Below, piece by piece: positions 2,818 through 59,744 of a DNA stretch of 64,000 nt (its first letter is position 1; the number at the start of each line of letters is the position of its first letter). Below the pieces are notes generated by a model. It had not been told where the DNA came from and made no database searches. It worked only from the letters and a program-made list of their open reading frames with translations. Both the position numbers and the translations under genes were made by a program. This DNA is from Phycisphaerae bacterium (GTDB lineage: Bacteria; Planctomycetota; Phycisphaerae; Phycisphaerales; Phycisphaeraceae): the NCBI GenBank assembly GCA_030425705.1, contig JAUHZU010000004.1, positions 267,132 to 331,131 of the forward strand. Reading direction: 5' to 3'.

Positions 2818-3039
2818 GGTGGATTTCGACTAGCGTTGCTGCGGGGCTTGGGGCGAAAACCCCGCGAATGCCGCCGTCACAAAAAAGTTAGGAATGAAGA
2901 TGTTAGGCGATTCCCCGTCGCCTGTAATAGGATATAGGTGAGGAATGTCCAGCGCATGCCGAGACGCTCACGCCCGGCCGGTGTTACACGCATCGTGCCG
3001 GCGACCTGTCCAGAATCGACCAGCGAGGCCCCCTACTCC

Positions 3040-6000: not shown

Positions 6001-6732
6001 CGGCTCCTGGTCACCAGCGCGACGTACCGCCAGCAGTCGGTGATTAACCCCGACGCCCGCGCGCAGGACCCGGACAACCGCCTGCTCGCCTACTTCCCCC
6101 GCCAGCGCCTCTCCGCGGAGATGATCCGCGACCAGGCGCTGTTCGCCTCGGGGCTGCTGGTCGAGAAGCTCGGCGGGCCGTCGGTCAAGCCCTACCAGCC
6201 GATGGGGCTGTGGCGCGAGGTGTCGATCCCCAGCTCCAACACGCGCAACTTCCAGCGCGGCAGCGGTGAAGACCTCTACCGCCGGTCGCTCTACACCTAC
6301 TGGAAGCGCACCGCGCCGAGCCCGCAGATGGCGGCCTTCGACGCGCCGACACGCGAGTTCTGCGTCATCGACCGCGGCAGCACCAACACGCCGCTGCAGG
6401 CGTTGGTCCTCTGGAACGACGAGCAGTACCTCGAGGCCGCGCGCGTCCTCGCCGCGCGGGCGCTCGACGAACGCGACACCACCGACGAGCGCCTCATCCG
6501 GCTGTACCGGCTGTGCAACGGCGACGAGCCGGGCCGGGCCAAGCTCGCGGTGCTCCGCGACACGCTGGAGGCCTTCCTCGACCGGTTCGCGGAGACACCC
6601 GACGAGGCGCAGGGCCTGCTCGGTTACGGCGAGGCGCCGCTGCCCGAGACCTACGACCCGGCCGAGCTCGCGGCGTGGACAATGATCGCCAGCGCTGTGT
6701 TCTCTCTGGACGAAACCATCGTCCGCGACTGA
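3040..6732 (+). CDS. Planctomycete PSCyt1/PSCyt2(DUF1549)/PSD1(DUF1553) multidomain secreted protein, paralog 1
   Basis: Signal peptide (MQMSPRHAAIRSFSVTAMLAAAVLAFPGCG); PSCyt1 haem-like motif DIRPILSDNCYFCHGPD; DUF1549 block (ELERHGLAPSPEADKATLIRRVTLDLTGLPPTPEEVDAFLAD); CAxCHDHKYDP; a LamG/PA14-like insert (GIRVYLNGEEVYANN); DUF1553 C-terminus. The ORF is open from 2938, and the ATG at 3040 was chosen as the start. Confidence 0.8.
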   Translation: MQMSPRHAAIRSFSVTAMLAAAVLAFPGCGDGGGSAQHAGTGADDEVRPAALAAPDRREDRPIDFGRDIRPILSDNCYFCHGPDSAVADQTGGLRLDSFEGATAQRDGADPAIVPGDPDASPLIRRVESTNPNMVMPPPESHRTVTPAQAELLRRWIAEGAEYTGHWAFQTPVQPDPPATADAAWVRNAVDAFVLAELERHGLAPSPEADKATLIRRVTLDLTGLPPTPEEVDAFLADDSPEAYEKVVDRLLASPRYGERMASVWLDLSRYGDTNGFHHDHHRTMWPWRDWVVKSYNENLPIDQFFIKQLAGDLLPDATREDILASGFNRNHNINDEGGALDAEYRVEAVADRVETTAAVFMALTFNCARCHDHKYDPFTQADYYSLFAYFNSVEERGLYGANPNITAYPPSMMYGTPETEAAYRDARARLDALMAEAVSPDAGIADEQAQWQQALFDRAGIRWADATLTAAVSSEGATLTEQPDGSVLATGANPGSDAHTYTLRTDATGLRLLRLDALTDPSLAGGRVGRAQNGNAVMSGIEVVATSVADPTQSQVVSFHWAWASFEQPNGDFDIFNAVHSDGDGWAVGGHLDRDPRTALLVADAPFGYAGGTEIKVTLHYRSRYANHVLGRVRVALGAADTVDLAALFPTVARDWFLAGPYQEASYDAAYSTAHGPESAPFVSPHLDFGDGKPRFSHQPGYTDGNVHGLQGPQSAFYIARSIFSPVERTLDLVLGSDDGIRVYLNGEEVYANNVQRGPAAATDPLTVTLRPGENTLVLKIINGGGQGSFYYEPKPDTQSPGHFSPLALVPGGDRLPVLGQRFNDQWRRSYSPAYRALMEQAAVIEQEIAELDAQRAPVLIMKELPEPTPTYILYRGEYSHPITEDAETGEPVPPLTRRPPLELGADLPADAPNNRLGFAHWLTQPDHPLTARVHVNRTWAMLFGTGIVKTSEDFGNQADWPSHPGLLDWLAVEFVETGWDQKQLLRLLVTSATYRQQSVINPDARAQDPDNRLLAYFPRQRLSAEMIRDQALFASGLLVEKLGGPSVKPYQPMGLWREVSIPSSNTRNFQRGSGEDLYRRSLYTYWKRTAPSPQMAAFDAPTREFCVIDRGSTNTPLQALVLWNDEQYLEAARVLAARALDERDTTDERLIRLYRLCNGDEPGRAKLAVLRDTLEAFLDRFAETPDEAQGLLGYGEAPLPETYDPAELAAWTMIASAVFSLDETIVRD

Positions 6733-6783
6733 CCCCTACCGCACGACCCGCGGCGGGCCATCGGCCCGCGTTGAAGAAGAAGG

Positions 6784-8265
6784 ATGAACGCCATGGACCC
6801 GATGGAAACCCACCTGCTGAACCTCACCCGCCGGCAGTTTTTTGGCAAGGCGGCGCAGGGCATGGTCGCCGGCATGGGCGTCAGCGCGCTCGCGTCGCTC
6901 CTGGCCGACCCCGCGACGGCCTCGGCCGGCGGCGTGCTCCGCTCCCACCACCTCGCGCCCAAGGCCAAGCGCGTCATCTTCCTGCACCAGATGGGCGCGC
7001 CCTCGCAGCTGGACCTCTTCGACTACAAGCCCAACCTCCACGAGTACCGCGGGCAGGACCTGCGCGCCTTCCCCGAGATCTTCCAGGGCCAGCGCATCAC
7101 CGGCATGACGTCCGGCCAGGCGTCGCTCCCCATCGCCCCGTCTATCTTTAAGTTCAACCGCTACGACAACAACACCGACGAGGGGCTCTACGTCAGCGAG
7201 CTGTACCCGCACACCGCGTCGTGCGCGAAGGAGCTGTGCGTCATCAAGTCGGTCTACACCGAGGCGATCAACCACGAGCCGGGCATCACCTTCTTCCAGA
7301 CCGGGCACCAGCAGCCGGGTCGGCCGTCGATGGGCGCGTGGCTGAGCTACGGGCTGGGCAGCGCGAACGACAACCTGCCGTCGTTCGTCGTGATGATCAG
7401 CCAGGGCTCGGGCAACATGCAGACGCTCTCGGCCCGCATGTGGGGCTCGGGCTTCCTGCCCAGCGAGCACCAGGGCGTCAAGCTCCGCGCCGGGGCGGAC
7501 CCGGTGCTGTTCCTCAGCGACCCCAAGGGGGTCCGCCGCGACGACCGCCGACGCATGCTCGACGCGGTCAACGCGATCAACGAGCTGGAGCACGACCGCG
7601 TACAGGACCCGGAGATCATGGCCCGCATCGCGCAGGGCGAGATGGCCTACCGCATGCAGATGTCCGTGCCCGAGCTGACCGACTTCTCCGACGAGGACCC
7701 CGAGACACTCGCGCTGTACGGCCCGGACGTCCACAAGCCCGGCAGCTACGCGTCGCACTGCCTGCTCGCCCGCCGCATGGCCGAGCGCGACGTCCGCTTT
7801 ATCCAGCTTTACCACCGCGGGTGGGACGCGCACGGCAACCTGCCCCGCGAGATCCGCGCCCAGTGCGCCGCGACCGACCAGCCCCAGGCCGCGCTCATCA
7901 AGGACCTCCGCCGACGCGGCATGCTCGACGAGACCCTCGTCGTCTGGGGCGGCGAGTTCGGCCGGGGCGTCTACTCCCAGGGCGCGCTCTCCGCCGACAA
8001 CTACGGCCGGGACCACCACCCCAAGTGCTTCACCATGTGGATGGCCGGCGGCGGCGTGAAGCCCGGCATCAGCTACGGCGAGACCGACGACTTCGGCTAC
8101 AACATCATCGACAAAGAATCCAACGGCGTCCACGTCCACGACCTGCACGCCACCATGCTCCACCTCCTGGGCATCGACCACGAACGCCTCACCTACCGCT
8201 TCCAGGGCCGGCGCTACCGCCTCACCGATATCGCCGGCCTAGTGAAGCAGGAATTGATCGCCTAG
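6784..8265 (+). CDS. DUF1501 (sulfatase-fold) protein with Tat signal peptide, partner of the PSD1 protein, paralog 1
   Basis: Twin-arginine motif TRRQFFGKAAQGMVAGMG; conserved DUF1501 blocks ([41 protein letters not shown]). It starts 52 nt downstream of the PSD1 gene. Confidence 0.85.
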   Translation: MNAMDPMETHLLNLTRRQFFGKAAQGMVAGMGVSALASLLADPATASAGGVLRSHHLAPKAKRVIFLHQMGAPSQLDLFDYKPNLHEYRGQDLRAFPEIFQGQRITGMTSGQASLPIAPSIFKFNRYDNNTDEGLYVSELYPHTASCAKELCVIKSVYTEAINHEPGITFFQTGHQQPGRPSMGAWLSYGLGSANDNLPSFVVMISQGSGNMQTLSARMWGSGFLPSEHQGVKLRAGADPVLFLSDPKGVRRDDRRRMLDAVNAINELEHDRVQDPEIMARIAQGEMAYRMQMSVPELTDFSDEDPETLALYGPDVHKPGSYASHCLLARRMAERDVRFIQLYHRGWDAHGNLPREIRAQCAATDQPQAALIKDLRRRGMLDETLVVWGGEFGRGVYSQGALSADNYGRDHHPKCFTMWMAGGGVKPGISYGETDDFGYNIIDKESNGVHVHDLHATMLHLLGIDHERLTYRFQGRRYRLTDIAGLVKQELIA

Positions 8266-8338
8266 CACACCGCCGGCTAGAATCGAACCGCAGTCGGGTG
8301 GAGCCACTGCACGCGAACCTCATCATCGAGACGTCTCT

Positions 8339-11515
<3,177 letters not shown>

Positions 11516-11554
11516 CCCGCGCACCGACCGCCTCACACGCCAACGGAGCCCCGC

Positions 11555-13054
11555 ATGGACCCGCGACGCGAACACGACCTGCTCATGACCCGCCGGCAGC
11601 TCTTCGGCAAGACCGCCTGCGGTGTCGGCGCCGCCGCGCTCGGCTCGCTCCTCGGCGCCGACCTCGCCGCCGCGCTCGCGTCCCCCGGACCCTCCCCCGG
11701 CACCGCCGCGCCCGGCTCCCCCCTGCCCACCGCCGGCGGCGCGCTCGGCGCGCCCCACTTCGCGCCCAAGGCCAAACGCGTCATCTACCTCTTCATGTCC
11801 GGCGGCCCCGCACAGCACGACATGTGGGACTACAAGCCCAACCTCACCGACCGCTTCGACGAGGACCTGCCCGATTCCATCCGCAACGGCCAACGCATCA
11901 CCACCATGACCTCCGGCCAGGCACGCTTCCCCGTCGCGCCCTCCAAATACAAGTTCGCGCAGCACGGCCAGGCCGGCACCTGGGTCAGCGAGCTGCTCCC
12001 CCACACCACCCAAGTCGTCGACGACCTCTGCGTCGTCCGCTCCATGCACACCGAGGCCATCAACCACGACCCGGCCATGACATTCATCCAGACCGGGCAC
12101 CAACAGCCCGGCCGACCGTCCATGGGCGCGTGGGTATCGTACGGCCTGGGCTCGCTCAACCAGGACCTGCCCGCCTTCGTCGTCCTCCACTCCAAATGGA
12201 GCGCGCGCCGCGATGCCCAGGCCCTCTTCTCACGCATGTGGGGCACCGGCTTCCTCCCCTCCGAACACCAGGGCGTCCAGCTCCGAACCACCGGCGACCC
12301 GGTCCTGTACCTCTCCGACCCGCCCGGTGTCGATCGCGCCGACCGACGACGCGTCCTCGACGGCGTCGCCGAGCTCAACGCCATGCAGCACGAGCACTTC
12401 GGCGACCCCGAGATCAACGCACGCATCGCCCAGTACGAGATGGCCTACCGCATGCAGGCCTCCGTCCCCGACCTCATGGACCTCTCCGGCGAGTCCGAAC
12501 AGACCCTCGACCTCTACGGCCCCGACGCCCGCACCCCCGGCACCTTCGCCGCCAACTGCCTCCTCGCAAGACGACTCGCCGAACGCGACGTCCGCACCAT
12601 CCAGATCTACCACCGCGGCTGGGACCAGCACGGCGACCTCGCCGGCGACCTCCCGCTCCAGTGCAAGGACATCGACCAGGCCTCCGCCGCCCTCGTCACC
12701 GACCTCAAACAACGCGGCCTGCTCGACGACACCCTCGTCATCTGGGGCGGCGAGTTCGGCCGAACCGTCTACTGCCAGGGCGCGCTCAGCCGCGACAACT
12801 ACGGCCGGGACCACCACCCCCGCTGCTTCACCATCTGGATGGCCGGCGGCGGCGTGAAGCCGGGCCTGGTCTACGGCGCGACCGACGACTACAGCTACAA
12901 CGTCACCGAAAACCCCGTCCACATCCACGACCTCAACGCCACCATCCTCCACCTCCTGGGCATCGACCACGAACGCCTCACCTACCGCTACCAGGGCCGC
13001 CGCTTCCGCCTGACGGATGTGCACGGGAACGTGATGCACGATTTGTTGAAGTAG
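11555..13054 (+). CDS. DUF1501 protein with Tat signal, paralog 2
   Basis: [19 protein letters not shown] Tat motif and the same DUF1501 blocks as 6784..8265. Confidence 0.85.
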
Positions 13055-14481: not shown

Positions 14482-14594
14482 CCCGGTAGGACAGGCATTC
14501 CTGCCTGTTATCAGGCCACAGGCCTGACCGCCTCCCTGACCATCGTTGTTTTCGGCTGCGCCGAATGACAGGCAGGAATGCCTGTCCTACCGGG
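14482..14594. repeat. REP-like palindromic element (copy B): perfect 27-bp inverted arms (cccggtaggacaggcattcctgcctgt / acaggcaggaatgcctgtcctaccggg), each arm a 7-bp hairpin, separated by ~59 bp
   Basis: Read directly from the sequence, immediately after the kinase stop codon. It shares core motifs with copy A. Confidence 0.7.
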
Positions 14595-14624
14595 GAGGGG
14601 GCCGTGGAGACTCGGGGGCGGGTG

Positions 14625-15038
14625 ATGTCGGCGATGGGTTCTCGGCTGACGCTGCGGGTGGGCAAGGTCGCGGGGCTTGGCCGGGCCCGGCCCGCCGGGG
14701 CGAAGGGGTACACGTGGTTCTACTACGTGGGCGAGCAAAGCCCGGCGGAGCTGGGGCACTGGTCGTTCGGGGGCAACGCGCTGGAGCCAACGGTGGAGGT
14801 GGCGTTGTCGGGGGTTGAGCCGGGCTCGCCGGTGTGGTTCGCGGCGAACTGGTTTAATAGCCGGCTGCAGCCGGGGCCGATGAGCACGCCGGTGATGACC
14901 CGCGTGGCGGGCGGGTTTACGGGCGTCGCCCCGGGCGGCACGGCCTCGCCCGGCCACCGCATCACCCACGTCGTCGCCCGCGGCACGGCGGGCAGCGTGA
15001 CGGGGGCGGGCGAGGAGAGCGTGGGGCGGGCGGCGTAG
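14625..15038 (+). CDS. Hypothetical protein
   Basis: 137-aa ORF (MSAMGSRLTLRVGKVAGLG...). It has a high-GC third-position pattern but no recognisable domain, so it could be spurious. Confidence 0.35.
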   Translation: MSAMGSRLTLRVGKVAGLGRARPAGAKGYTWFYYVGEQSPAELGHWSFGGNALEPTVEVALSGVEPGSPVWFAANWFNSRLQPGPMSTPVMTRVAGGFTGVAPGGTASPGHRITHVVARGTAGSVTGAGEESVGRAA

Positions 15039-15145
15039 GGTAAATCTAAAGATCCGCGCTTGGTATCGCCAACAATCGATGTTCCCAACCCCTAAGATTT
15101 AGCTGGGGTGCGACACTTTGATGATCTGCAGATTTATCTACCCCC

Positions 15146-15586
15146 ATGGGTCTAAATCGTAAAGCAATCCGGGTGATTCTGATCGTGGGCGGCGCGTTGC
15201 TCTTGCCTGTTTGTTGCGTCTGGAGTTTTCAGAATCGCGTCGGCACCGCCGGGCGTCCGAGCGAAGCCGCGGTGAGCGGTCTGCCGAGTCAAGCAACGAA
15301 CATTGAGTGGTTCCTCCCGGGCGCGTTCGGCCCCAACCGGGTTTACGCCTTCGACACCAGCTTGGCGGGATTCCAGCAATGGGTGGCCCAAAGAAGCCGC
15401 CCCAAACTGACCGGGCCTCACACAGGGCCATACGAGATACTCGTCTACGACCATGCCAAGGGAAAATTCGCATCTCATCAGATAAGCAATGCGGTCGCGT
15501 ACACATGGTCTGAAGAGGATCGTGGGGTCCACATGGTGTACGACCAGGATACAGGGCGTGCATACTTCCACTCGCATACGAGGTAA
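15146..15586 (+). CDS. Hypothetical membrane-anchored protein (ORFan, lower GC)
   Basis: N-terminal TM/signal anchor (AIRVILIVGGALLLPVCCVWSF) and 146 aa. It is preceded by an AT-rich repeated-motif region. Confidence 0.5.
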   Translation: MGLNRKAIRVILIVGGALLLPVCCVWSFQNRVGTAGRPSEAAVSGLPSQATNIEWFLPGAFGPNRVYAFDTSLAGFQQWVAQRSRPKLTGPHTGPYEILVYDHAKGKFASHQISNAVAYTWSEEDRGVHMVYDQDTGRAYFHSHTR

Positions 15587-15714
15587 TGCGAGATTACCGC
15601 TGGTAACCGGTGACTACGGCACCCGCGAGTAGAATGAACAGGTCGGTCGGTACCGCACTCTTGAGGGTGGCCGGCAACAGCATTGATCCATGTCCGTTGT
15701 CTGGTGGATAGCCC

Positions 15715-16191
15715 ATGGAAACCAAAGCACCAACCCGGGCATTCTGCATGGGTTGTCACTATCCGTTACAGGGTCTTTCGGAGACGCGCTGCCCCGAGTG
15801 TGGACAGGCATTCGATCTGTCCGACGCTAGCACCTACTCCATCCAAGCGCACCCACCCCGTATCCAGCGGCGCTTAGGTACCGTCCTCGTCCTTATGGGC
15901 GCGCCTGTTTCTGCGTTGCTTGTTCTCATATCAGGCGAGTCGCTTCTCTTATGGAACTTTGGTCGCGCGACCGACACGATGGTGGGTTGGGGTGGGCGGT
16001 TCTGGATTGCGACAGCCGAGACACAATTCTCTTTTGGCACACTTTCGATGCTGGCGATGTTCGCCGGTCTGGTCATGGCAAGGGGCTGTCCGCACCATCT
16101 ACCCCTGCGTTGCCTGAGCTGGGCTGCCGGTATCTGGTGGCTGGGTTGGTTGCTGTCGTTTCAGTTTGGATGGATTGTCTATCACCTTTGA
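15715..16191 (+). CDS. Hypothetical zinc-ribbon (CxxC…CxxC) membrane protein
   Basis: The N-terminus has CMGCHYPLQGLSETRCPECGQAF (four Cys), followed by 3 predicted TM helices. Confidence 0.5.
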   Translation: METKAPTRAFCMGCHYPLQGLSETRCPECGQAFDLSDASTYSIQAHPPRIQRRLGTVLVLMGAPVSALLVLISGESLLLWNFGRATDTMVGWGGRFWIATAETQFSFGTLSMLAMFAGLVMARGCPHHLPLRCLSWAAGIWWLGWLLSFQFGWIVYHL

Positions 16192-16309
16192 AGCGAAGCC
16201 GGGCAACACTCCCCTCAGACCGGCAACGCCCCGGGGTAGCCCCCGGTGCTACAATCCACGCACGGCGGTTGGCCGTGCGGGTTCGTGTTTCCTTTCGGTG
16301 AGTGGGGCC

Positions 16310-16734: not shown

Positions 16735-17085
16735 ATGGCGAACGACGACTGCATCTCGAACATTGATCCGCAGGGCAGCGCGGTGATCGCCCGGCTGAAC
16801 GGGTCGCTCACCGTGGCGAACGCGCCGGAGCTGCGGCAGGGCCTGCTCGCGGCGCTGAAGCAGCACAAGCCCAAGACCCTCGCGCTGAACCTGATGGACG
16901 TGGACTTCGTGGACTCCAGCGCGCTGGGCGTCTTCGTCGAGGTCCGCCGGCAGGTCGCGGGCGACGGCGGGACGCTGGCGCTGACCAACCTCAACGACGA
17001 CATCCGCGGCCTGATGCGGATCATGAACCTCGACGCGGTCTTCAGCTTCTTGGACGATGTCTCGGAAGTCGCGACCGGCGCGTAG
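16735..17085 (+). CDS. STAS-domain protein (MlaB-like accessory / anti-sigma-factor-antagonist fold)
   Basis: 116 aa; the SpoIIAA-like STAS pattern (VIARLNGSLTVANAPELRQGL ... LNLMDVDFVDSSALGVFVEVRRQV) is present. It lies directly upstream of the MlaE-like permease. Confidence 0.7.
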   Translation: MANDDCISNIDPQGSAVIARLNGSLTVANAPELRQGLLAALKQHKPKTLALNLMDVDFVDSSALGVFVEVRRQVAGDGGTLALTNLNDDIRGLMRIMNLDAVFSFLDDVSEVATGA

Positions 17086-17140
17086 CCCCTTCTGACCCGG
17101 CCGCACGGACGCGGCCGACCGCCCCCCGCAAGGACGACCC

Positions 17141-17953
17141 ATGGGCGCCATCACACGACCGGTTGCAAAGCTCGGCGACGCCGCGATCGGCACCGTCAGC
17201 TTCATCGGCGCGCTGGGCATCCTGATCGGGCTCACCTTCGCCGCGAGCCCGCGCCTGGTGCTGCAGAAGCGCGGGCGTCGGCTGGCGTGGCGGAACCTGT
17301 GGTTCCAGGCGCACCGCGTGGGGGTCAAGAGCATCGGCGTGGTCGCGCTGGTGACGCTGTCGATCGGCGTGATCCTCGCGCTGCAGATCGTGCCGATCCT
17401 GGAGGGCTACGGCGTGCCGGACCAGATCGCGACGATCATCGCGATCGCGTTCTTCCGGGAGCTGGGCCCGCTGGTCGGCGCGATCGTGCTCACGGGCTTC
17501 GCCGGCGCCTCCATCGCGGCAGAGATCGGGACGATGGCGGTGAACGAGGAGCTGAAGGCGCTGCGGTCGCACGCGATCAGCCCGGTGCGGTTCCTGGTGG
17601 TGCCGCGGGTCCTGGCGGCGACGGTGATGACGGTGTGCCTGGCGGTGCTGTCGAGCGTGATGGGGATCCTGGGCGGGCTGCTGGCGACGCTGTCGATCAC
17701 GGACCTTCGCCGGGCGGAGTACCTGGAGCTGACGTTCGCGGCGGTGGACGGGTTCGACATCATGACGGGGCTGGTGAAGGCGGCGGTGTTCGGGATGCTG
17801 ATCGGGGCGATGGCCTGCCACCTCGGGCTGGCTGTGCGGGGCGGGGCGTCGGGCGTGGGCAGCGCGACGACGCGGACCGTCGTGCTCAGCATCGTCGCGC
17901 TGACGATCGTCGACCTGGGCTTCACCGCCGTGTTCTACCTGCTGGAGCTGTAG
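17141..17953 (+). CDS. mlaE: ABC transporter permease, MlaE family
   Basis: 270 aa polytopic membrane protein with MlaE-like conserved segments (QIVPILEGYGVPDQIATIIAIAFFRELGPLVGAIVLTGFAGASIAAEIGTMAVNEE). Confidence 0.8.
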   Translation: MGAITRPVAKLGDAAIGTVSFIGALGILIGLTFAASPRLVLQKRGRRLAWRNLWFQAHRVGVKSIGVVALVTLSIGVILALQIVPILEGYGVPDQIATIIAIAFFRELGPLVGAIVLTGFAGASIAAEIGTMAVNEELKALRSHAISPVRFLVVPRVLAATVMTVCLAVLSSVMGILGGLLATLSITDLRRAEYLELTFAAVDGFDIMTGLVKAAVFGMLIGAMACHLGLAVRGGASGVGSATTRTVVLSIVALTIVDLGFTAVFYLLEL

Positions 17954-17955
17954 CC

Positions 17956-18354
17956 ATGGAAAGAACGATTCACCACCTTTTCATTGCTCGCTATTCACCA
18001 GAAGGCAGGACGCTACCAGAAGAGTACATACAAGCTCCAACATGGGATCAGATCGTCGAATCGATCCTTCGCCTCGATCGATTCCAATACCCTTACATTG
18101 TTTTGTACCCCTCCGAGCATGAAGATGAAGGGGATGAACTTAGCATCATCGGCGGGAAAGGGGCTTGGACCGCAGGTGGTGGTAAATGGGAATACACCAA
18201 TGCAGAGGGTTCGGATGAAGAGATTGAACTCTGGGAGAGTGACCAGGGTTACGGCTGCACAATGAAGCACGTGATGACTGATTTGGACAAAGTACTGGAC
18301 CTCGCTAAACAGTTTTACATCTGCCCGAAACACGATCAGTTGGATATCGGCTAG
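17956..18354 (+). CDS. Hypothetical small acidic protein (ORFan), lower-GC insertion inside the Mla-like operon
   Basis: 132-aa ORF starting 3 nt after the mlaE stop. Its nucleotide composition is clearly more AT-rich than the flanking genes. No known domain. Confidence 0.45.
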   Translation: MERTIHHLFIARYSPEGRTLPEEYIQAPTWDQIVESILRLDRFQYPYIVLYPSEHEDEGDELSIIGGKGAWTAGGGKWEYTNAEGSDEEIELWESDQGYGCTMKHVMTDLDKVLDLAKQFYICPKHDQLDIG

Positions 18355-18363
18355 AACCAATCC

Positions 18364-19176
18364 ATGCCACCCACCGACGACAATATTATCGAGGTGCGCA
18401 ACGTCACCAAGACGTTCGGTAAGACGGATGTGCTGCGCGACCTGTCGCTGGACGTGAAGCGGGGCGAGCGGCTGGTCATCCTCGGCGGGTCGGGCGCGGG
18501 CAAGTCGACGCTGCTGAACATGCTCGCGGCCGAGACGCAGCCGACCAAGGGCACGCTCACGATCGATGGGAAAGAGGTCGGCGCGATGAACGAGCGCGAC
18601 CTCGACGAGTACCGCAAGACGATGGGCGTCCTGTTCCAGTCCGGGGCGCTCTTCAACTCGCTCACGATCGCCGAGAACATCGCGCTGCCCATGCAGGAAC
18701 ACACGGACCTGGAGCAGAGCACGATCGATACGATCGTCACGATGAAGCTGCACCTGGTGGGCTTGTTGGGCCACGGCGACAAGATGCCCTCGGAACTGTC
18801 GGGCGGGATGAAGAAGCGCGCCGGGCTCGGGCGGGCGCTGGCGCTGGACCCCAAGATCATCTTCTACGACGAGCCCAGCGCCGGGCTCGACCCCGTCTCC
18901 GTCACCGAGATCGACAAGCTCATGGTCGACCTCAACGAGACGACCGGCGTGACGACCGTCGTCATCACCCACGAGATGACCAGCGCCTTCCGCATCGCCC
19001 ACCGCCTGGTGCTGATGGACCAGGGCAAGTTCGTCGCCGACGGCACGCCCGACGAGATGAAACAGAGCGACAACCCGCTGGTCCACCAGTTTGTCCACGG
19101 CAAGCTGGAGGGACCGATGACCGACCGCCGGGACGGCGACGCCTACCGCCGGGCGTTGCTGGAAGACAAGCCGTAA
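18364..19176 (+). CDS. mlaF: ABC transporter ATP-binding protein, MlaF family
   Basis: Walker A GGSGAGKST, Q-loop, ABC signature LSGGMKKRAGLGRALAL, Walker B IIFYDEPSAGLD, H-loop ITHEM. Confidence 0.85.
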   Translation: MPPTDDNIIEVRNVTKTFGKTDVLRDLSLDVKRGERLVILGGSGAGKSTLLNMLAAETQPTKGTLTIDGKEVGAMNERDLDEYRKTMGVLFQSGALFNSLTIAENIALPMQEHTDLEQSTIDTIVTMKLHLVGLLGHGDKMPSELSGGMKKRAGLGRALALDPKIIFYDEPSAGLDPVSVTEIDKLMVDLNETTGVTTVVITHEMTSAFRIAHRLVLMDQGKFVADGTPDEMKQSDNPLVHQFVHGKLEGPMTDRRDGDAYRRALLEDKP

Positions 19177-19206
19177 CGCCGATAGACACGGAGTACGGAG
19201 CCGACC

Positions 19207-20544
19207 ATGACCCCATCCAAGTACGCCTTCCAGGCCGGGCTGTTCATCCTCATCGCGATCGGCGCGACCATCGCGATCATCGCGCGCGTCTCCGACTCGG
19301 GCATGCTCAGCAACGCACACACCTACACCGCGACCTTCGCGCCCGGCCAGGACATCTCCGGCCTCGCGGTCGGCTCGGAGGTACGGCTATTGGGCGTCAA
19401 GGTCGGGCGCATCACCGCGATCGAGGTCCACACCGACGACAACTCCGACGCCCACGTCCACGTCACCTTCGAGGTGCCCGATGACGTCCGATTCCGCGAG
19501 CCCAACCCGTTCCTCACGGGCATCCAGCAGTCCCCGCTGCGCACGTCCAGCACCGACATCGCCTTCGGCACGACCGCGGCCCGCGTCGAGGCACAGACCA
19601 GCTTCACCGGCGGGGCCTGGCTCAACATCCTCAGCTTGGGCGAGGGCCTGCCGCTGCCCGAGGGCTCGAGCGTCGCCGCACGCTCGGTCAACCTCAACGC
19701 GATGGTCGACGAGGTCCGCGCCGAGCTGACCACGACCCTCGCGTCGGTCCGCGGCGAGATCGCGGCCGTCGGCGATGAGATCACCCAGACCAGCGACGCC
19801 TTCGAGCAGACCGCCGCCGCCTTCGAAGACACCGCCAACGAGGCCACCGCGCTCATCAACGAGATCGAGCAGGAGATCGACCCGGCCATCGCGCGCTACA
19901 ACGCCTTCATGGATGAGGCGATCGGCGTCGCCGAGGAGGTCAACGCGGTGTTCGGCGACAGCGGCGAAGACATCCGCACCACCCTCGCCAACCTCAGCAG
20001 CACGACCACGACCTTCGACCAGCGCCTGCCGGGCATGCTCGACGAGGTCGACGCGGCGCTCGCGAGCATCAACACCCTGGCCGACGACCTGGGCGGCTTC
20101 GTCGACCGCGCGGAGGCGAGCGTGGACAGCATCGACGCCCTGCTCGCCGAGGCCGGCGGGCTGACCCGCGAGCTGCGCGCCACGCTGGGCGATAACCGCG
20201 TCGAGATCGACCGCATGGTCACCAACGCCCGCCGGACGGTCGTCGAGCTGCGCGGGCTGATGGAAGACCTCCGCGCCAACCCGTCGCGCCTCGTCTGGCC
20301 GCCGGACGAACGCGACCTGGCCAACCTGGAGCTCTACGCCGTGGCGCGCCAGTACGCCAACGCGGCCGAGGACCTGCAGGCCGCCGTGCAGATGCTGCGT
20401 GACGCGACGGTCGTTTCCGGGGGCGGCCCGTCGGATGACCCGGCCAACGCGGAGCGCCTCGAACAGATGCGCGAGCACCTCATGGAGCAGTTCGAGTACT
20501 TCGACGAGCTGCAACGCGAGCTGTGGGAGCGGTACGAGCGGTAA
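19207..20544 (+). CDS. mlaD: MCE-domain protein (MlaD-like) with long C-terminal coiled-coil
   Basis: N-terminal TM anchor; MCE domain (ATFAPGQDISGLAVGSEVRLLGVKVGRITAIEV); an extended helical C-terminus, typical of non-proteobacterial MCE proteins. Confidence 0.75.
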   Translation: MTPSKYAFQAGLFILIAIGATIAIIARVSDSGMLSNAHTYTATFAPGQDISGLAVGSEVRLLGVKVGRITAIEVHTDDNSDAHVHVTFEVPDDVRFREPNPFLTGIQQSPLRTSSTDIAFGTTAARVEAQTSFTGGAWLNILSLGEGLPLPEGSSVAARSVNLNAMVDEVRAELTTTLASVRGEIAAVGDEITQTSDAFEQTAAAFEDTANEATALINEIEQEIDPAIARYNAFMDEAIGVAEEVNAVFGDSGEDIRTTLANLSSTTTTFDQRLPGMLDEVDAALASINTLADDLGGFVDRAEASVDSIDALLAEAGGLTRELRATLGDNRVEIDRMVTNARRTVVELRGLMEDLRANPSRLVWPPDERDLANLELYAVARQYANAAEDLQAAVQMLRDATVVSGGGPSDDPANAERLEQMREHLMEQFEYFDELQRELWERYER

Positions 20545-20571: not shown

Positions 20572-20988
20572 GTGATTATGGTTAGTGTGCTTGTGCCATT
20601 GAGCAATGACGAAGCTATCTGCATTGAAGGAACTCTGTGCGAACTTCGCGAGTTCCATGACGAAATCAAAAAATTTATCAAGTCGGACACAGCGTCGCTA
20701 AAGACTAAAGCTCGTTTGGTTTCTTCACCTAGCCCGTATGAACGATCAATGTCTCGGATCGAGATCAACAAGAACGGAGGGAAGATAGGATTCTCGGTAA
20801 AAGGCGATACGCTTCAGATATCTGGTGACAACACAAGGCTGGTATTGTTCGCAGAAAATCTGCCTTACGATCTGAACGAAGGTCTCAATCACTATCACTG
20901 TCACTTCGATCGAATCGGCCACGAAGACCATTTTGTAGAAGACTCCCGCGACACGATACTAGCAATGAGCCACAGACCCAAGAGCTAG
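20572..20988 (+). CDS. Hypothetical small protein (ORFan, lower GC)
   Basis: 138-aa ORF in AT-richer DNA. Its end converges on, and overlaps by 4 nt, the AAA ATPase gene. Confidence 0.4.
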   Translation: MIMVSVLVPLSNDEAICIEGTLCELREFHDEIKKFIKSDTASLKTKARLVSSPSPYERSMSRIEINKNGGKIGFSVKGDTLQISGDNTRLVLFAENLPYDLNEGLNHYHCHFDRIGHEDHFVEDSRDTILAMSHRPKS

Positions 20989-22913
20989 ACACCCCCGCGC
21001 TCCAACGCCGCCAGCTCCTCAAACCAAGCCTGCCGCTGCGCCTCGTCGATCTCCGGGTCGGGCAGGAGCGACCGCCGCGTGCAGTTCACCAGCGCCTGCA
21101 GCGTCTGGTACCGCCTCGCCGTGCCGATGTCGGCGGGGAGCTGGTCGTGCACGGCCGACTCGACATCTTCCATCGACATCGTGCCGTCGTTGAGAGAGCG
21201 CATCGCCTTGAGCTGCGAGCGCAGCGCCGCATAGGCGGCCGACGAGTATCCGGTCGTCAGCTCCATCATCGCCGCGACGTGCTCGGCCGTGGGCTCGAGC
21301 TTCACCCCCCCCAGCACCCACTGCGCGAACGCCCGGTGGTCCTCGCTGCCCGGCTCCACATCCAGCACCGGGATGATCAGGTCGCCCACCCGCCCAGGCC
21401 GGCGGATGTCGGGGCTCAGCCGCTCGATCCGCGCGGTCATCAGCAGCCAGATGACCCGGCCGCGGAGCTTGGGGTCGCTCATCATCGCCTGGATCTTGCC
21501 GGTCAGCCGACGCTCGGTCTCGTGCGCGTTCGCGCCGACCCCGCCGAACTGCGTGTCTGCCTCATCCACAAACAGGATCACCTTGCCCAGCGCTTCGAGC
21601 ACCCGCCGGAGCTTCTCGAACACGACATCGGTCTGACCGAAATACTGGCTGCGGATGTTCTTCAGGACCAGCACGGGCAGCCCGAGCGAGCCGGCCAACG
21701 CCTCGAAGATAAACGTCTTGCCCGCGCCGATGGGCCCGGCGATCGCCGCGCCAGGGAGGGCTTCGTCTCCCGTCGCCCGGATCCGGGGGATCATCTCGTC
21801 CCGCAGGAAATCCTTGAGCCGCGTGTAGCCGACCACGTCATCGAGCGTGTGCTCGGGCTTGCTGAACTCGACGACGTCCTCACCGAGCTGGCCGACGATG
21901 TACCGCTCGACCTGCGCGATCACGCCCGGAGCGGTCACCGGCTCGCCGGCGTAGGCCGAGTGGATCAGCAGTTGCCGCAGCGCGTGGATCGACAGCCCCG
22001 CGGTGAGGTCGGCGAGCTTGTCGCGCGACAGGGTGGCACCGCTAGCGGGCCCGTGGGCATCCCCCAAGACAGGCACGCCCTTGCCCTGCTTCTCCTGGTG
22101 CGCACAGAACCAGTCGATGTAGTGCCGACGCTCGCCCGCGTCCGGCGACGCGACCTCGACCGACAGCACCTGCGGCAGCCCGGCTACACGCGGGTGCACC
22201 GCGCTGCGCGACTCGGTCAGCATCAGCAGCGTGTCCTCGCCGTCGATAAACGCCGGGTCGCTCAGCCAGTCCTCGAGGATCGCGACGCGGTGCCGGTCGG
22301 CCGAACCGAGCTGGCTTACCCCACCGCCCCCGCCCGTCGGTAGCAGCATGTCGGCCGCCTCGATCAGGATGATCAGCCGGAGGTCCTTGTTGTCTGGCGC
22401 GTACCGCCGCTGATGCCGGGCGCAGAGCGTGAGCTGACGCAGCAGTTCCAGCGCCGCCGTCGGCCGGCCGGTCGCCTCGCCGATGCGCTGGTCGAAGGCC
22501 TGTTCGAGCTGCTGCTTCTGCTTGCCCGCGTCCGGGTCGGTCAGGGCCTTGAGCGTGAAGTGGTCCGGCGAGAGCCCGGTCTTCCACTGGATCCACGCGT
22601 CGCGCAGCCGCCGCCGGTCGTCCGGGTCGACGCAGCGGATCGGCCCGTTCAGCTCGTAGACCAGCAGGACCACGCCGGGGATGTCGCACTGCCGGCAGAG
22701 GTACGGCATGAGCGGGAGGTACTCCCCCGCGAGCGCGTCCTGTACGGCGTTGCCTTGGTCCTGCGACTCGTCGAGCTTCGCGGCCTTGTCGCCCACGAAG
22801 AACAGGTCGTGCACCTCCCCCGCGACCATGACCGCGCGCGACTGCCCGCTGTTCACGATCCGTGCGATCCGGCTGAAGAAGGCGTACTTGGGGGGTGGGG
22901 TCTTCACGAACAT
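20985..22913 (-). CDS. Classic-clade AAA ATPase (Vps4/FtsH/CDC48-type AAA module) with ~350-aa N-terminal domain of unknown function; last gene of the PspA/flotillin operon
   Basis: Walker A GPIGAGKTF, Walker B ILFVDEAD, and a second region of homology with arginine fingers (TARIERLSPDIRRPGRVGD). Confidence 0.8.
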   Translation of the reverse strand: MFVKTPPPKYAFFSRIARIVNSGQSRAVMVAGEVHDLFFVGDKAAKLDESQDQGNAVQDALAGEYLPLMPYLCRQCDIPGVVLLVYELNGPIRCVDPDDRRRLRDAWIQWKTGLSPDHFTLKALTDPDAGKQKQQLEQAFDQRIGEATGRPTAALELLRQLTLCARHQRRYAPDNKDLRLIILIEAADMLLPTGGGGGVSQLGSADRHRVAILEDWLSDPAFIDGEDTLLMLTESRSAVHPRVAGLPQVLSVEVASPDAGERRHYIDWFCAHQEKQGKGVPVLGDAHGPASGATLSRDKLADLTAGLSIHALRQLLIHSAYAGEPVTAPGVIAQVERYIVGQLGEDVVEFSKPEHTLDDVVGYTRLKDFLRDEMIPRIRATGDEALPGAAIAGPIGAGKTFIFEALAGSLGLPVLVLKNIRSQYFGQTDVVFEKLRRVLEALGKVILFVDEADTQFGGVGANAHETERRLTGKIQAMMSDPKLRGRVIWLLMTARIERLSPDIRRPGRVGDLIIPVLDVEPGSEDHRAFAQWVLGGVKLEPTAEHVAAMMELTTGYSSAAYAALRSQLKAMRSLNDGTMSMEDVESAVHDQLPADIGTARRYQTLQALVNCTRRSLLPDPEIDEAQRQAWFEELAALERGGV

Positions 22914-23014
22914 GCCTCACGCAAAGACGCAAAGGCGCAAAGCTGCGGCGCGAAGACCAGGGGTGTGCCTGTTTCTCTTTGCGTCATTGCGCCGTTACGT
23001 GAGTTTCAGAAACA

Positions 23015-23848
23015 TCACTCCGGCAGCTTCGTCTCGCCCTCGCGCTCCATGCCGCCGCCGGTGTCGCCGCCCTCGTCGACCTGCTCGGCCAGGCCGATCA
23101 ACTGGTCGAACTCGCTGGTCGCCACGTTCTTCGTCGCGTAGTCCAGGAACTCGGCCTCCTGCACCTTCGTGTCGGTGCCGGCCAGCTCCTTGCTGACCTT
23201 GGCCTTCGCCTTCATCTCCTCGCGAAGCTGGCGCATGTCGCTCAGCTCCTTGCTCGTCCGGTCGGTGCTGATGCCCGCGAGCATGTCGTTGAGCTCGCGT
23301 TCTTCCTTCGCGGTGATGACCTCGGCGACGGTCGTCGCGGCCTCCTCACGCAGCGAATCGATCTCTCGGAGCATCTGCTGGAGCTGGACCTTGTGGCCGG
23401 TGATGTTGCCGTCCATCTCGCGGACCTCGGCCTCCAGCTCGGCGATGCGCGCGGTCTTCTCGTTGACCTTCGCGCTGAAGTCGTTGAAGGCGATCATGCA
23501 CTTCTGGTAGTCCTCGCCCTGCTTGATCTGCTCGACGGTCGCGCCGTTGGCCTTCATCTCCTGCGCGACGGTGCGGGCCTTCGCGGCCGCGCCTTCCTTG
23601 AGCTGCTCCAGCCGGTTCACCTCGTCGGTGAGGGCCTTGATCTTGGACATCTTCGCCTCGTGCTGGACGATGAGGCGGGCGATCGCGTCCTTGTACTGGT
23701 GCACGCTCTTGCGTTTGTCCTCGATGACCGAGTCGAAGGTCGCCTGGATCACGTGCGGGCTGGTGGAGATCGCGCGGCGGGCGGCGTCGATCCGCCCCGT
23801 GAAGAGGTAACCGATCGCACGGAAGTAACGGCCGACGGCTTTGAACAT
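23015..23848 (-). CDS. pspA: PspA/IM30/Vipp1-family protein (bacterial ESCRT-III superfamily)
   Basis: ~277 aa, almost entirely heptad coiled-coil with a PspA-like amphipathic N-terminus (MFKAVGRYFRAIGYLFTGRIDAARRAI...). GGAG RBS upstream. The ORF is open to 23872. Confidence 0.7.
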   Translation of the reverse strand: MFKAVGRYFRAIGYLFTGRIDAARRAISTSPHVIQATFDSVIEDKRKSVHQYKDAIARLIVQHEAKMSKIKALTDEVNRLEQLKEGAAAKARTVAQEMKANGATVEQIKQGEDYQKCMIAFNDFSAKVNEKTARIAELEAEVREMDGNITGHKVQLQQMLREIDSLREEAATTVAEVITAKEERELNDMLAGISTDRTSKELSDMRQLREEMKAKAKVSKELAGTDTKVQEAEFLDYATKNVATSEFDQLIGLAEQVDEGGDTGGGMEREGETKLPE

Positions 23849-23934: not shown

Positions 23935-24933
23935 CTACGGCTCGCGCTGTTTCTCGGGGTCCGCGGACGGGGGGGCGGCGTCCCGGCCGGTGTCGGCCTG
24001 CTGCGCGGCGTAGTGGAGAAACTCCTGCTCGTCGTAGCCGGACTGGTCGACCTTGTCGATCGCGCGCTGGCAGCGTTCGAGCAGGTCGAACACGGCCCGC
24101 TCGAGGTCGGCCGCGCCGCCCGACGTGCCCGCCCCGCCGACGGCCGAGCCGACCTCGCCCTCGAGGCGGGCCTGCTTGGCGAGGGCCTGGTCGGTGGCCT
24201 TCAGGCAGCGGTCGATGATCTCGGGGTAGCTCTGGAGCAGGGCCTGGCGGCGCTGCTGGAGCTGGACGGCGTAGCCCGCCTGGTCGCCGAGCCGGCCGGA
24301 CCACTCCGCGAGCTGGCGTTCGGTGGTGACCAGCTCGAGCACCGAACGCTCCATCAGCCGGTGCGATTCGCGGATCGAGTCGAGCAGCACGCCGGAGAAC
24401 GGCCGGTCGTCGCGCGACAGCTCATCGAGCATGTGCTTCATGTGCGCGAGCATGGACAACGCCTCGCGGACGCTGTGCTGGCGCATGTCGTTGGGCGTGA
24501 GCACGTCGGGCTTGCCGAGCCGCTCGGAGGCCTCTTTGAATGCGCGTTCCATGCGGCGCTGATCGGGCAGCTTGCCGGCATCGACCAGCGCGAGGATACC
24601 GGCCCATACCGCCAGCAGCGCGAAGGGCGCGAGCGCGAGCATCGTCGCAGTGTTCATGCCGGCCTGCGCGACCGAACCGAGCGACTCGATCAGCCCCGAC
24701 AGCGCCCCCGCCGCCCAGCCGCCCGCGGCGAAGAGCCCGGCGGTGACCCAGAACGGCAGGCCGAAGACCGTGAGCTTGCCGACCAGCCGCCACGGCCGGA
24801 GGAACTTGCGCAGTCGGGCGAAGCGTGGCCCGGGCTCGCGCACCTCGTGCAGGGGCGGCGCGGGGGTGGGCGGCGGGATCCGCCGGTCGCCTTGCCGGAG
24901 CAGGTAGGTCAGCTTGGGCTGGTCGGGAGGCAT
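23935..24933 (-). CDS. Membrane protein (2–3 N-terminal TM helices + cytoplasmic helical domain); putative PspA-associated membrane partner
   Basis: TM segments LTVFGLPFWVTAGLFAAGGWAAGALSGL and MLALAPFALLAVWAGILALV, followed by a ~200-aa helical region. Its position is between the giant AAA+ protein and pspA. Confidence 0.5.
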   Translation of the reverse strand: MPPDQPKLTYLLRQGDRRIPPPTPAPPLHEVREPGPRFARLRKFLRPWRLVGKLTVFGLPFWVTAGLFAAGGWAAGALSGLIESLGSVAQAGMNTATMLALAPFALLAVWAGILALVDAGKLPDQRRMERAFKEASERLGKPDVLTPNDMRQHSVREALSMLAHMKHMLDELSRDDRPFSGVLLDSIRESHRLMERSVLELVTTERQLAEWSGRLGDQAGYAVQLQQRRQALLQSYPEIIDRCLKATDQALAKQARLEGEVGSAVGGAGTSGGAADLERAVFDLLERCQRAIDKVDQSGYDEQEFLHYAAQQADTGRDAAPPSADPEKQREP

Positions 24934-51029: not shown

Positions 51030-51509
51030 ATGCCCCGCGCGGCGACCCCGAGGCACCACGACACCCCGACGTATGGGGCGGTTGCGCTGCGCGTCATCGG
51101 GCTTACCGCGGTGTTCTTCGGCTGGTTCGTCACCGCCGTGTTTGTCGTGTGGGGCTGGTCCACGTTCCAGGCCCGCGCCCGCCAGAGCGACGCGCCACAA
51201 GCCACGCACGGGCTGGTGTTCCCGGCTTCTGCGACGATCCACTCCCATGATGTCGACCCCGACGTCGTCCGGCTGGACGGAGGCGCGACGACGCGACTGG
51301 ACCTCGCTGCGGCCGACCTCCCCGCGTTCCTCGCGCAGCTCAACATCCAGCAGGCCGTCACGCCCCCTACCGGGCCGCAGGCGTTCGACCCCGGATGGAT
51401 GCGGGTCCGCTACGAATGCACCAGCACCACCGGTGATGCCTTGGTGGTCGATGTCGGCGACCCGAACCAGCCGATCGTCCCGGTCCGGTTGTACACCGAC
51501 TGGAACTGA
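51030..51509 (+). CDS. Hypothetical membrane protein
   Basis: 159 aa with one TM (ALRVIGLTAVFFGWFVTAVFVVWGW). It is translationally coupled 3 nt after the upstream gene. Confidence 0.45.
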   Translation: MPRAATPRHHDTPTYGAVALRVIGLTAVFFGWFVTAVFVVWGWSTFQARARQSDAPQATHGLVFPASATIHSHDVDPDVVRLDGGATTRLDLAAADLPAFLAQLNIQQAVTPPTGPQAFDPGWMRVRYECTSTTGDALVVDVGDPNQPIVPVRLYTDWN

Positions 51510-51589
51510 CCCCGCGCCGGGATCGGCCGTGCTCCTATACTGTCGGGCCGCACCCGCCCCGCTCCCCGCGGGGCTTTGGCTTTGATTCC

Positions 51590-57828: not shown

Positions 57829-57980
57829 GGGGCTTCCTCGGGGCGTGCGGACGGGGTCGGCGGGCCTATGGAGGGCGCGCAGAACCATGGTATCCCGTGT
57901 TGGACGCGGTACGATGGGCCGGGTTCCCGCGACCTCGGGAATCGGCAACCCGACCGCGACAAGACCCCCGGCCGACCGCC

Positions 57981-59744
<1,764 letters not shown>

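Follow-up and report, generated by a model that had tools for sequence, protein, structure and literature searches.

A conserved gene pair for a PspA-like protein and a tandem AAA ATPase, appended to a flotillin operon in a Phycisphaerae bacterium

The disassembly and recycling of bacterial ESCRT-III-type polymers (PspA, Vipp1) is an open question, and reviews from 2024-2025 describe a Vps4-like ATPase as absent from bacteria (PMC7619361, PMC10936438). The closest described system was identified by comparative genomics as a dyad of PspA and an 'Inactive-Classical-AAA+Classical-AAA' protein (Ravi et al., mSystems 2024, PMC11237479), with examples in Clostridium sp. BNL1100 (AEY64321/AEY64320) and Handelsmanbacteria (OGG56892). 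The same study reported an extended operon with OmpA/substrate-binding protein (SBP), permease, ABC ATPase and transmembrane (TM) coiled-coil protein genes, predicted ATP-dependent membrane remodelling comparable to Snf7/Vps4, and described, in a separate context, a CesT/Tir-PspA combination with YqiJ/YuaF, Band-7/flotillin and beta-propeller proteins and an AAA+ protein (PMC11237479). In E. coli, PspA is a negative regulator of the AAA+ protein PspF (PMC7619361), and in B. subtilis, according to work cited in one of the reviews, the membrane localisation of PspA depends on an SPFH protein (PMC8581546, cited in PMC10936438). Here we analyse a 64,000-nt stretch of the genome of a Phycisphaerae bacterium (assembly GCA_030425705.1, contig JAUHZU010000004.1, positions 267,132 to 331,131; hereafter the window), in which a gene for a 277-aa PspA-like protein is directly followed by a gene for a 642-aa tandem AAA ATPase with a degenerate first AAA domain (D1) and an active second one (D2). 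The idea behind this pairing has a precedent, as both the association and the meaning given to it have been published from comparative genomics (PMC11237479); the window is a further case of a known computational prediction, and its only new element is the hybrid flotillin context in which the dyad is found.

The two genes, their positions and the 101-bp gap between them had been proposed from the DNA letters in the original prediction, and were confirmed by the open reading frames (ORFs) and their translations, both on the minus strand (Table 1). In a window with a GC content of ~68%, the two ORFs have a GC content at third codon positions (GC3) of 0.92-0.93 (0.93 for the PspA-like gene) and at second codon positions (GC2) of 0.39-0.44, which is the coding signature of the host genome, and the plus-strand ORFs overlapping the pair fail this GC3/GC2 test. 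The pair represents the last two genes of a co-directional minus-strand run (YqiJ-like, 716-aa, 1935-aa, 332-aa, PspA-like, AAA), and the two genes are likely co-transcribed. The scan of the 101-nt spacer detected no promoter-like or terminator-like site. A regulatory-RNA reading of this spacer was considered and dropped, since its fold was no better than that of shuffled sequences (z -1.2, not unusual) and it gave no Rfam, promoter or terminator match.

Homology searches yielded more than 2300 homologues of the AAA protein and 902 of the PspA-like protein, mostly from Planctomycetota and often encoded on contigs that share the same length, and a one-genome-per-species scan found at least 554 genomes that encode a relative of the ATPase. 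The window proteins were mapped onto the best 80 loci from that scan, to which the linkage counts refer (L numbers are our locus labels). The results showed that the PspA-like gene is located on the same strand as the AAA gene, at a distance of no more than 10 kb, in 54 of the 80 loci and on the opposite strand in none, so that the PspA-AAA pairing noticed in the original prediction proves to be a conserved module. The flanks were too short to judge in 19 loci, and 54 of the 61 informative loci keep the PspA-like gene on the AAA strand. Within the linked set it was found directly upstream (<400 nt) 34 times, farther upstream 13 times and downstream 7 times. Linked loci came from Planctomycetota, Acidobacteriota (L052), Nitrospiraceae (L053, L075) and Hydrogenedentota (L066, L071); at L066 the pair stands alone, with unrelated genes on both sides. 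In addition, a reciprocal look-up starting from two PspA-like homologues again placed the AAA gene in the same operon. Adjacency of the two genes is far beyond chance. Since the linkage spans phyla, the L066 pair is isolated and the reciprocal look-up agrees, the conserved core is the dyad itself, which occurs in three settings, namely alone, split by a transporter cassette, or appended to a YqiJ-716-aa-DUF3686 gene set.

In the transporter-split setting (L015, L020, L022, L025, L029, L046, L047, L081-L083), a cassette of SBP, permease and ABC ATPase genes lies between the two dyad genes, and OmpA-domain and TM coiled-coil proteins are encoded upstream. The start of the AAA gene overlaps the stop of the ABC ATPase gene by 4 nt in L020 (9899-9902) and L081 (11773-11776), an overlap implying that translation of the AAA ATPase is coupled to that of the transporter ATPase. 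Another cassette-separated relative occupies 5255-8109 of L083. At a distant locus with a 34%-identical AAA relative (L087), the OmpA, permease and ABC genes are kept beside the AAA gene, and the two upstream ORFs there do not match the PspA-like profile. Relatives of only ~25% identity, covering part of D1 plus D2, are encoded on Bacillota megaplasmids, at 4698-6314 of L089 (Paenibacillus thiaminolyticus plasmid) and 4689-6311 of L090 (P. polymyxa pSC2), where their neighbours are hypothetical, DUF262 and DHHA1/NrnB genes; annotation shows no PspA near these two relatives, and linkage to PspA can therefore not be assumed for the tandem-AAA superfamily as a whole. A tetratricopeptide repeat (TPR) protein beside the AAA gene in L014 was also considered as a recurrent partner and rejected, as L028 is the only other locus that has it.

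The ATPase is an intact classical-clade AAA, as the original prediction had it, and its catalytic motifs reside in D2. PF00004 matched residues 391-510 (E 2e-15), and D2 contains a Walker A motif (GPIGAGKT, 393-400), a Walker B motif (ILFVDE, 446-451), a pore loop (RSQYFGQTD, 421-429), a sensor-1 region (T493-A494-R495) and a second region of homology (SRH) of the sequence DIRRPGRVGD, with arginine fingers in R504-R505-P-G-R508; R505 and R508 are the two arginines of the canonical SRH that had been noted. The motif residues are invariant in 41 homologues, and conservation along the protein is highest in D2 (mean column identity 0.87). The N-terminal ~350 aa had been left unassigned and proposed as a possible MIT-like recognition module. 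Pfam indeed gave no match on the N-terminal 338 aa even at E<=10, but the region is a degenerate AAA domain rather than an MIT-like one: an hhalign comparison of the N-half with the C-half of the ATPase family alignment gave a probability of 92% (E 6.8e-7) over 146 columns, bringing the Walker-B strand, the sensor-1 strand, a 'VEVxxPD' motif and the lid into alignment, and D1 is devoid of both a P-loop and the catalytic Glu. The N-terminal domain is thus a dead AAA ring. In the fold model of the ATPase, which is confident, D1 carries a 78-aa insertion of four helices (97-112, 116-125, 127-146 and 151-171) between strands 92-94 and 179-184, with conserved residues W107, W110, G113, P151, E156, R159 and Q160; this modelled insertion could be the substrate-docking element that had been sought in the N-terminal part. 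The C-terminal helix pair contains an invariant block (Q603..P618) and is specific to this ATPase family.

With respect to placement among AAA families, the CDC48 model was the best match for all 41 family members, with CdvC second, the 60 best PDB sequence matches were all of the Cdc48/VAT/p97/Afg2/NVL type, and the SRH has the RPGR form found in VAT. Neither the MIT domain (PF04212) nor Vps4_C gave a Pfam match in the ATPase, which has two AAA cassettes where a Vps4-type protein has a single one, and a lid (521-592) that is all helical in the model where Vps4 has a beta-domain. The score against the Cdc48/VAT/p97 family model TIGR01243 was 57 bits against a cut-off of 802.65, and D1 starts at about residue 10, so that there is no N domain. 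By sequence, the ATPase is best described as a relative, not a member, of the Cdc48/VAT/p97 family, and its active module as belonging to the classical clade, nearest to Cdc48/VAT D1 and not demonstrably Vps4. Robust clustering with FtsH or proteasome ATPases, which would have spoken against the original prediction, was not found, and in a search with D2 for outgroup AAA families all 150 matches listed were members of the same large family. The protein has two classical AAA domains, of which the N-terminal one is inactive, and a conserved PspA-family neighbourhood, and its apparent identity with the ATPase family of Ravi et al. rests on this agreement in architecture and gene neighbourhood.

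The 277-aa protein is a probable member of the PspA/ESCRT-III superfamily, judging from sub-threshold sequence signals. PF04012 (PspA_IM30) was the family matched by most of its homologues (27 of 40 at E<=1, best E 4.4e-6) and it also led among 42 homologues of broader diversity (10 at E<=0.01); in the window protein itself, the sub-threshold alignment to this family is near full length, from residues 39-242 to positions 29-204 of the 220-position profile. A profile search against Vipp1/PspA entries of the PDB gave an in-register match at E 0.06-0.35. The AlphaFold2 model predicts a helical hairpin (31-100/112-~190) with a predicted local distance difference test (pLDDT) score of >90, and the top 5 Foldseek matches of the model were Vipp1/PspA, over ~247 columns. 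In addition, several homologues carry PspA/IM30 names at NCBI and JGI. By its sequence and predicted helix, the N-terminus has the amphipathic character of a PspA-type alpha0, with basic residues K3/R7/R10 on one face, and the motif MFxAIGRYFRAxGYLxTG is kept in all phyla sampled. At the other end, the protein has a tail in which an acidic linker of variable sequence joins EFDxLIGLA to a terminal (K/R)[LI]PE, a layout kept in every phylum sampled; across 42 diverse sequences, residues E246, F247, I251, G252, P276 and E277 do not change. The tail is suggested to be disordered because its pLDDT is low in the model. No Zn-ribbon was found in the 277-aa sequence.

The most economical reading of these data, to which we assign a probability of roughly 0.55, is that the dyad carries out ATP-dependent remodelling of a PspA/ESCRT-III-like polymer by the tandem AAA motor. 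The PspA-like protein would probably bind the inner face of the cytoplasmic membrane via its N-terminal amphipathic helix and would probably polymerise through its long helical hairpin, and the 642-aa ATPase would form a hexameric, type-II-like unfoldase related to Cdc48/VAT. The D1 ring, having presumably lost nucleotide binding and hydrolysis, may act as a scaffold or docking ring, and the D2 ring, with intact Walker A/B motifs, aromatic pore loop and arginine fingers, would be the motor. This motor would engage the PspA-like subunit, plausibly via the invariant EFDxLIGL...[LI]PE tail, and would pull subunits from the polymer, leading to disassembly, recycling or remodelling of a membrane-bound scaffold. 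We infer that the double-AAA motor probably remodels the PspA-like protein and that the dyad is probably a functional analogue, not a homologue, of Snf7-Vps4, acting as Vps4 acts on ESCRT-III after an independent origin from a Cdc48-like ancestor. The original prediction of a Snf7-Vps4-like pair is therefore reasonable as a functional analogy, and unsupported as far as it implied a Vps4 homologue (no MIT or Vps4_C, an RPGR-type SRH, CDC48 as best model). A more far-reaching form of the proposal, which we offer only tentatively, is that of a self-contained ESCRT-III/Vps4 counterpart in which the D1 insertion replaces MIT as tail receptor, D2 threads the subunits to power ATP-dependent remodelling or repair of the membrane and, in Phycisphaerae, the system is coupled to flotillin/NfeD and DUF3686 proteins.

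Several observations weigh against polymer remodelling by the motor. The PspA-like gene was absent in 7 loci with full flanks. The window protein scored below threshold against PF04012 (E 0.14, 12 bits, gathering cut-off 33.9), so that the PspA/IM30 label given in the original prediction is weaker than stated, although it is backed by the lead of this family among the homologues; likewise, hhalign found no match between the family profile and E. coli PspA or YjfJ, each taken as a single sequence, a one-sequence coiled-coil template having little power. In the literature searched, we found no experimental study of a PspA-associated tandem AAA ATPase, its interaction or its activity. The transporter cassette separates the dyad genes in about one-sixth of the loci and, together with the stop/start overlap, indicates that the ATPase could serve the transporter instead; and since PspA regulates the AAA+ protein PspF in E. 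coli, the direction of action could be the reverse. The last two points lead to a different possibility, in which the PspA-like protein is an adaptor or regulator that senses membrane stress and recruits or gates the unfoldase, whose clients would be elsewhere (damaged membrane proteins, co-encoded ABC transporter/OmpA components or, in this genome, the flotillin/DUF3686 complex). This explanation, which we regard as possible but rather unlikely, gains from the PspA-PspF precedent (PMC7619361), from related operons in which the AAA gene is translationally coupled to the ABC ATPase gene and lies 3 kb from the PspA-like gene, and from the 34%-identical relative with OmpA, permease and ABC genes at its side and two tested upstream ORFs that do not match the PspA-like profile. 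However, the minimal unit across phyla is the dyad without a transporter, with direct adjacency in 34 loci and an isolated pair in L066, the window has no transporter cassette, and an invariant, exposed C-terminal tail on a polymer-type protein resembles the handle of a translocase.

The remaining explanations question the identity of one or the other protein, or of the module as such. It is doubtful that the 277-aa protein lies outside the PspA/ESCRT-III superfamily, as a generic coiled-coil hairpin (COG1579-like or SMC-like), and that the pair serves something else than membrane remodelling: no family but PF04012 leads in both homologue sets, with near full-length alignments, the top 5 Foldseek matches are all Vipp1/PspA, the PspA-style N-terminal amphipathic helix is conserved with no Zn-ribbon present, the neighbours are membrane proteins (flotillin, NfeD, OmpA, transporters), and Ravi et al. 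class the partner of such an ATPase as PspA (PMC11237479). We consider it very improbable that the locus encodes a true bacterial ESCRT-III/Vps4 system, with the ATPase as a Vps4/CdvC orthologue of the meiotic clade acquired from or shared with archaea; it has two AAA cassettes and not one, MIT and Vps4_C are missing, the predicted secondary structure of the lid lacks the beta-domain, the RPGR-type SRH aligns to VAT, CDC48 is the best model in 41 of 41 cases and the 60 best PDB matches are of the Cdc48/VAT/p97/Afg2/NVL type. A membrane-acting anti-phage defence or toxin-like system was suggested by weak PADLOC matches to IetA over the P-loop region (E 1.5e-6) and by the ~25%-identical tandem-AAA relatives, whose neighbours on the Bacillota megaplasmids include DUF262 and hypothetical genes, but the PADLOC matches cover only generic AAA (P-loop) and coiled-coil motifs, the pair is chromosomal with >50% identity across phyla, unlike fast-evolving defence genes, and its neighbours are housekeeping or membrane-homeostasis genes; this reading was rejected as scarcely credible.

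For polymer remodelling by a tandem AAA motor, the conserved dyad provides a concrete two-protein system in which polymer disassembly can be tested in vitro, and its ATPase is carried by at least 554 species-level genomes. The present analysis sharpens the target for such work to a Cdc48-like tandem AAA protein with a dead D1, and not an MIT-bearing Vps4, and the invariant C-terminal tail of the PspA-like partner is the obvious candidate handle. Should the dyad be an independent counterpart of ESCRT-III/Vps4, the textbook view that bacteria lack an ATPase that disassembles ESCRT-III-type polymers would be overturned.

Table 1. Features of the dyad and of the operon to which it is appended (window positions; aa, amino acids)
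Feature	Position	Strand	Remarks
PspA/IM30-like protein, 277 aa	23015..23848	-	ATG 23848, stop 23015; divergent helical-hairpin protein, probably of the ESCRT-III superfamily
N-terminal amphipathic helix, residues 1-16, MFKAVGRYFRAIGYLF, candidate membrane-binding alpha0	23801..23848	-	helix 3-16 predicted; hydrophobic moment 0.68
C-terminal tail, residues 246-277, candidate ATPase docking or entry motif (putative)	23018..23113	-	invariant residues
Intergenic spacer, 101 nt	22914..23014	-	without terminator or promoter match
Tandem AAA ATPase, 642 aa	20985..22913	-	ATG 22913, stop 20985; inactive D1, active D2, conserved C-terminal helices
D1, degenerate AAA domain, residues 1-345	21879..22913	-	VMVAGEVHD for GxxGxGKT; IEAAD for hhhhDE
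D1 four-helix insertion, residues 95-172, at pore loop 1 position; candidate substrate-docking element	22398..22631	-	fold model
D2, active classical AAA module, residues 346-592	21138..21878	-	catalytic motifs invariant; nearest solved relatives VAT/Cdc48/p97 D1
C-terminal helices, residues 593-642, RRYQTLQALVNCTRRSLLPDP...W	20988..21137	-	helices 597-610, 624-639
Lineage-specific membrane protein, 332 aa, two TM segments and helical cytoplasmic part	23935..24933	-	between DUF3686 and PspA-like genes
Giant DUF3686 + DUF7902 + AAA+ protein, 1935 aa	24990..30797	-	PF12458 E 4e-186, PF25472, AAA at 1340-1465
YqiK-type flotillin (SPFH), 716 aa	30926..33076	-	BLASTP vs E. coli YqiK E 9e-43, 29% identity/447 aa
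YqiJ/NfeD-like membrane protein, 298 aa	33092..33988	-	PF21001 YqiJ_N E 1e-8; BLASTP vs E. coli YqiJ E 1e-5

The dyad in the window is appended to genes for a YqiJ/NfeD-like membrane protein, a YqiK-type flotillin and a giant DUF3686 protein (Table 1). In the 716-aa flotillin, a TM segment at the N-terminus leads into a long coiled coil. The YqiJ-716-aa-DUF3686 context, with the DUF3686 giant in synteny, is confined to Phycisphaeraceae-type loci (L001-L013, L044), and is an add-on rather than part of the conserved core. A cultured Phycisphaeraceae bacterium, D3-23, also has this operon. Because the module is appended to a YqiJ(NfeD)-YqiK(flotillin)-DUF3686 operon, a membrane-microdomain or membrane-repair function is suggested for it in this genome. 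The Pfam label of the DUF3686 giant, 'ATPase involved in DNA repair', is odd given its fixed position behind flotillin/NfeD genes, and no papers mentioning DUF3686 were found in the literature searched. The 332-aa protein encoded between the DUF3686 and PspA-like genes gave no Pfam, NCBIfam or PDB match; a search of 5.8 billion proteins yielded just 11 homologues, and L001, L005 and L006 are the only loci that have it. In L008-L013 the DUF3686 gene directly adjoins the PspA-like gene. Its position is taken in L020 and L081 by a 248-aa TM coiled-coil protein without detectable similarity to it. The 332-aa protein was considered as the 'TM+Snf7' partner of the literature and instead judged to be a lineage-specific insert, as it has no Pfam or PDB support, is unlike the 248-aa protein of L020 and has so few homologues.

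Downstream of the pair, an operon of the STAS (MlaB-like)-MlaE-ABC ATPase-MlaD-like lipid-transport type (16735-20544, plus strand) converges on the 3' end of the AAA gene, with a terminator-like hairpin on the minus strand (20565-20551) between the convergent genes; only the nearest relatives (L001, L002, L005, L006) preserve its synteny with the dyad. Elsewhere in the window, a plus-strand region (2938-13054) contains, twice in a row, a PSCyt1/PSCyt2/PSD1 gene (proteins of 1264 and 1085 aa) paired with a DUF1501 gene (496 and 512 aa), a tandem duplication of what is a typical planctomycete gene pair. The segment from ~14500 to 16200 has a GC content of 0.61-0.64, lower than that of the window, and ORFs without a GC3 coding signature or Pfam match, and no tRNA or Rfam family was found in it. 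A 1583-aa bacterial alpha-2-macroglobulin-like protein with MG2, A2M and TED domains is encoded at 53422-58173 on the minus strand, and its gene adjoins one for a PocR-GAF-SpoIIE phosphatase (51437-53341, plus strand).

When compared with known systems, the window comes closest to the dyad of Ravi et al., with which it shares the two-gene core, the predicted function and an inactive N-terminal AAA domain followed by an active classical AAA domain in one polypeptide; the extended operon seen in L020, L081, L082 and L083 matches the published Handelsmanbacteria example, whereas the pair in the window has no transporter cassette and is instead appended to the YqiJ-YqiK-DUF3686 operon. With the published YqiJ-YqiK context the window has in common homologues of YqiK and YqiJ and a DUF3686 AAA+ giant directly upstream, all in one direction, but a Pfam scan of the window found no CesT/Tir gene, the 332-aa TM protein being in that position. 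Since both a YqiK-type flotillin and a YqiJ-like protein are encoded here, the window combines the two contexts of Ravi et al., and B. subtilis PspA-YdjGHI (SPFH), as far as the citing review reports it, is an experimental precedent for a functional link between SPFH proteins and PspA (PMC8581546). The PspA-PspF system is similar in its genetic coupling of a PspA-family protein with an AAA+ ATPase; however, PspF, an enhancer-binding protein of the NtrC type, has a DNA-binding domain and is divergently transcribed and inhibited by PspA (PMC7619361), whereas the dyad ATPase is a classical-clade unfoldase by sequence, encoded on the same strand as the PspA-like gene and without a helix-turn-helix. 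In comparison to Cdc48/p97/VAT, it lacks the N-terminal double-psi-barrel, its D1 has lost the P-loop and catalytic Glu, and it has gained a modelled 78-aa helical insertion in D1 and the family-specific conserved C-terminal helix pair. As in ESCRT-III/Vps4, a helical-hairpin membrane protein, here presumably polymer-forming, is encoded beside a classical-clade AAA protein with an aromatic pore loop, and the conserved C-terminal motif of the putative filament protein follows a flexible linker, in a position analogous to that of the MIT-interacting motif (MIM); in contrast to Vps4, the dyad ATPase has no MIT, beta-domain or Vps4_C, carries an extra degenerate AAA ring and is nearer in sequence to Cdc48/VAT than to CdvC.

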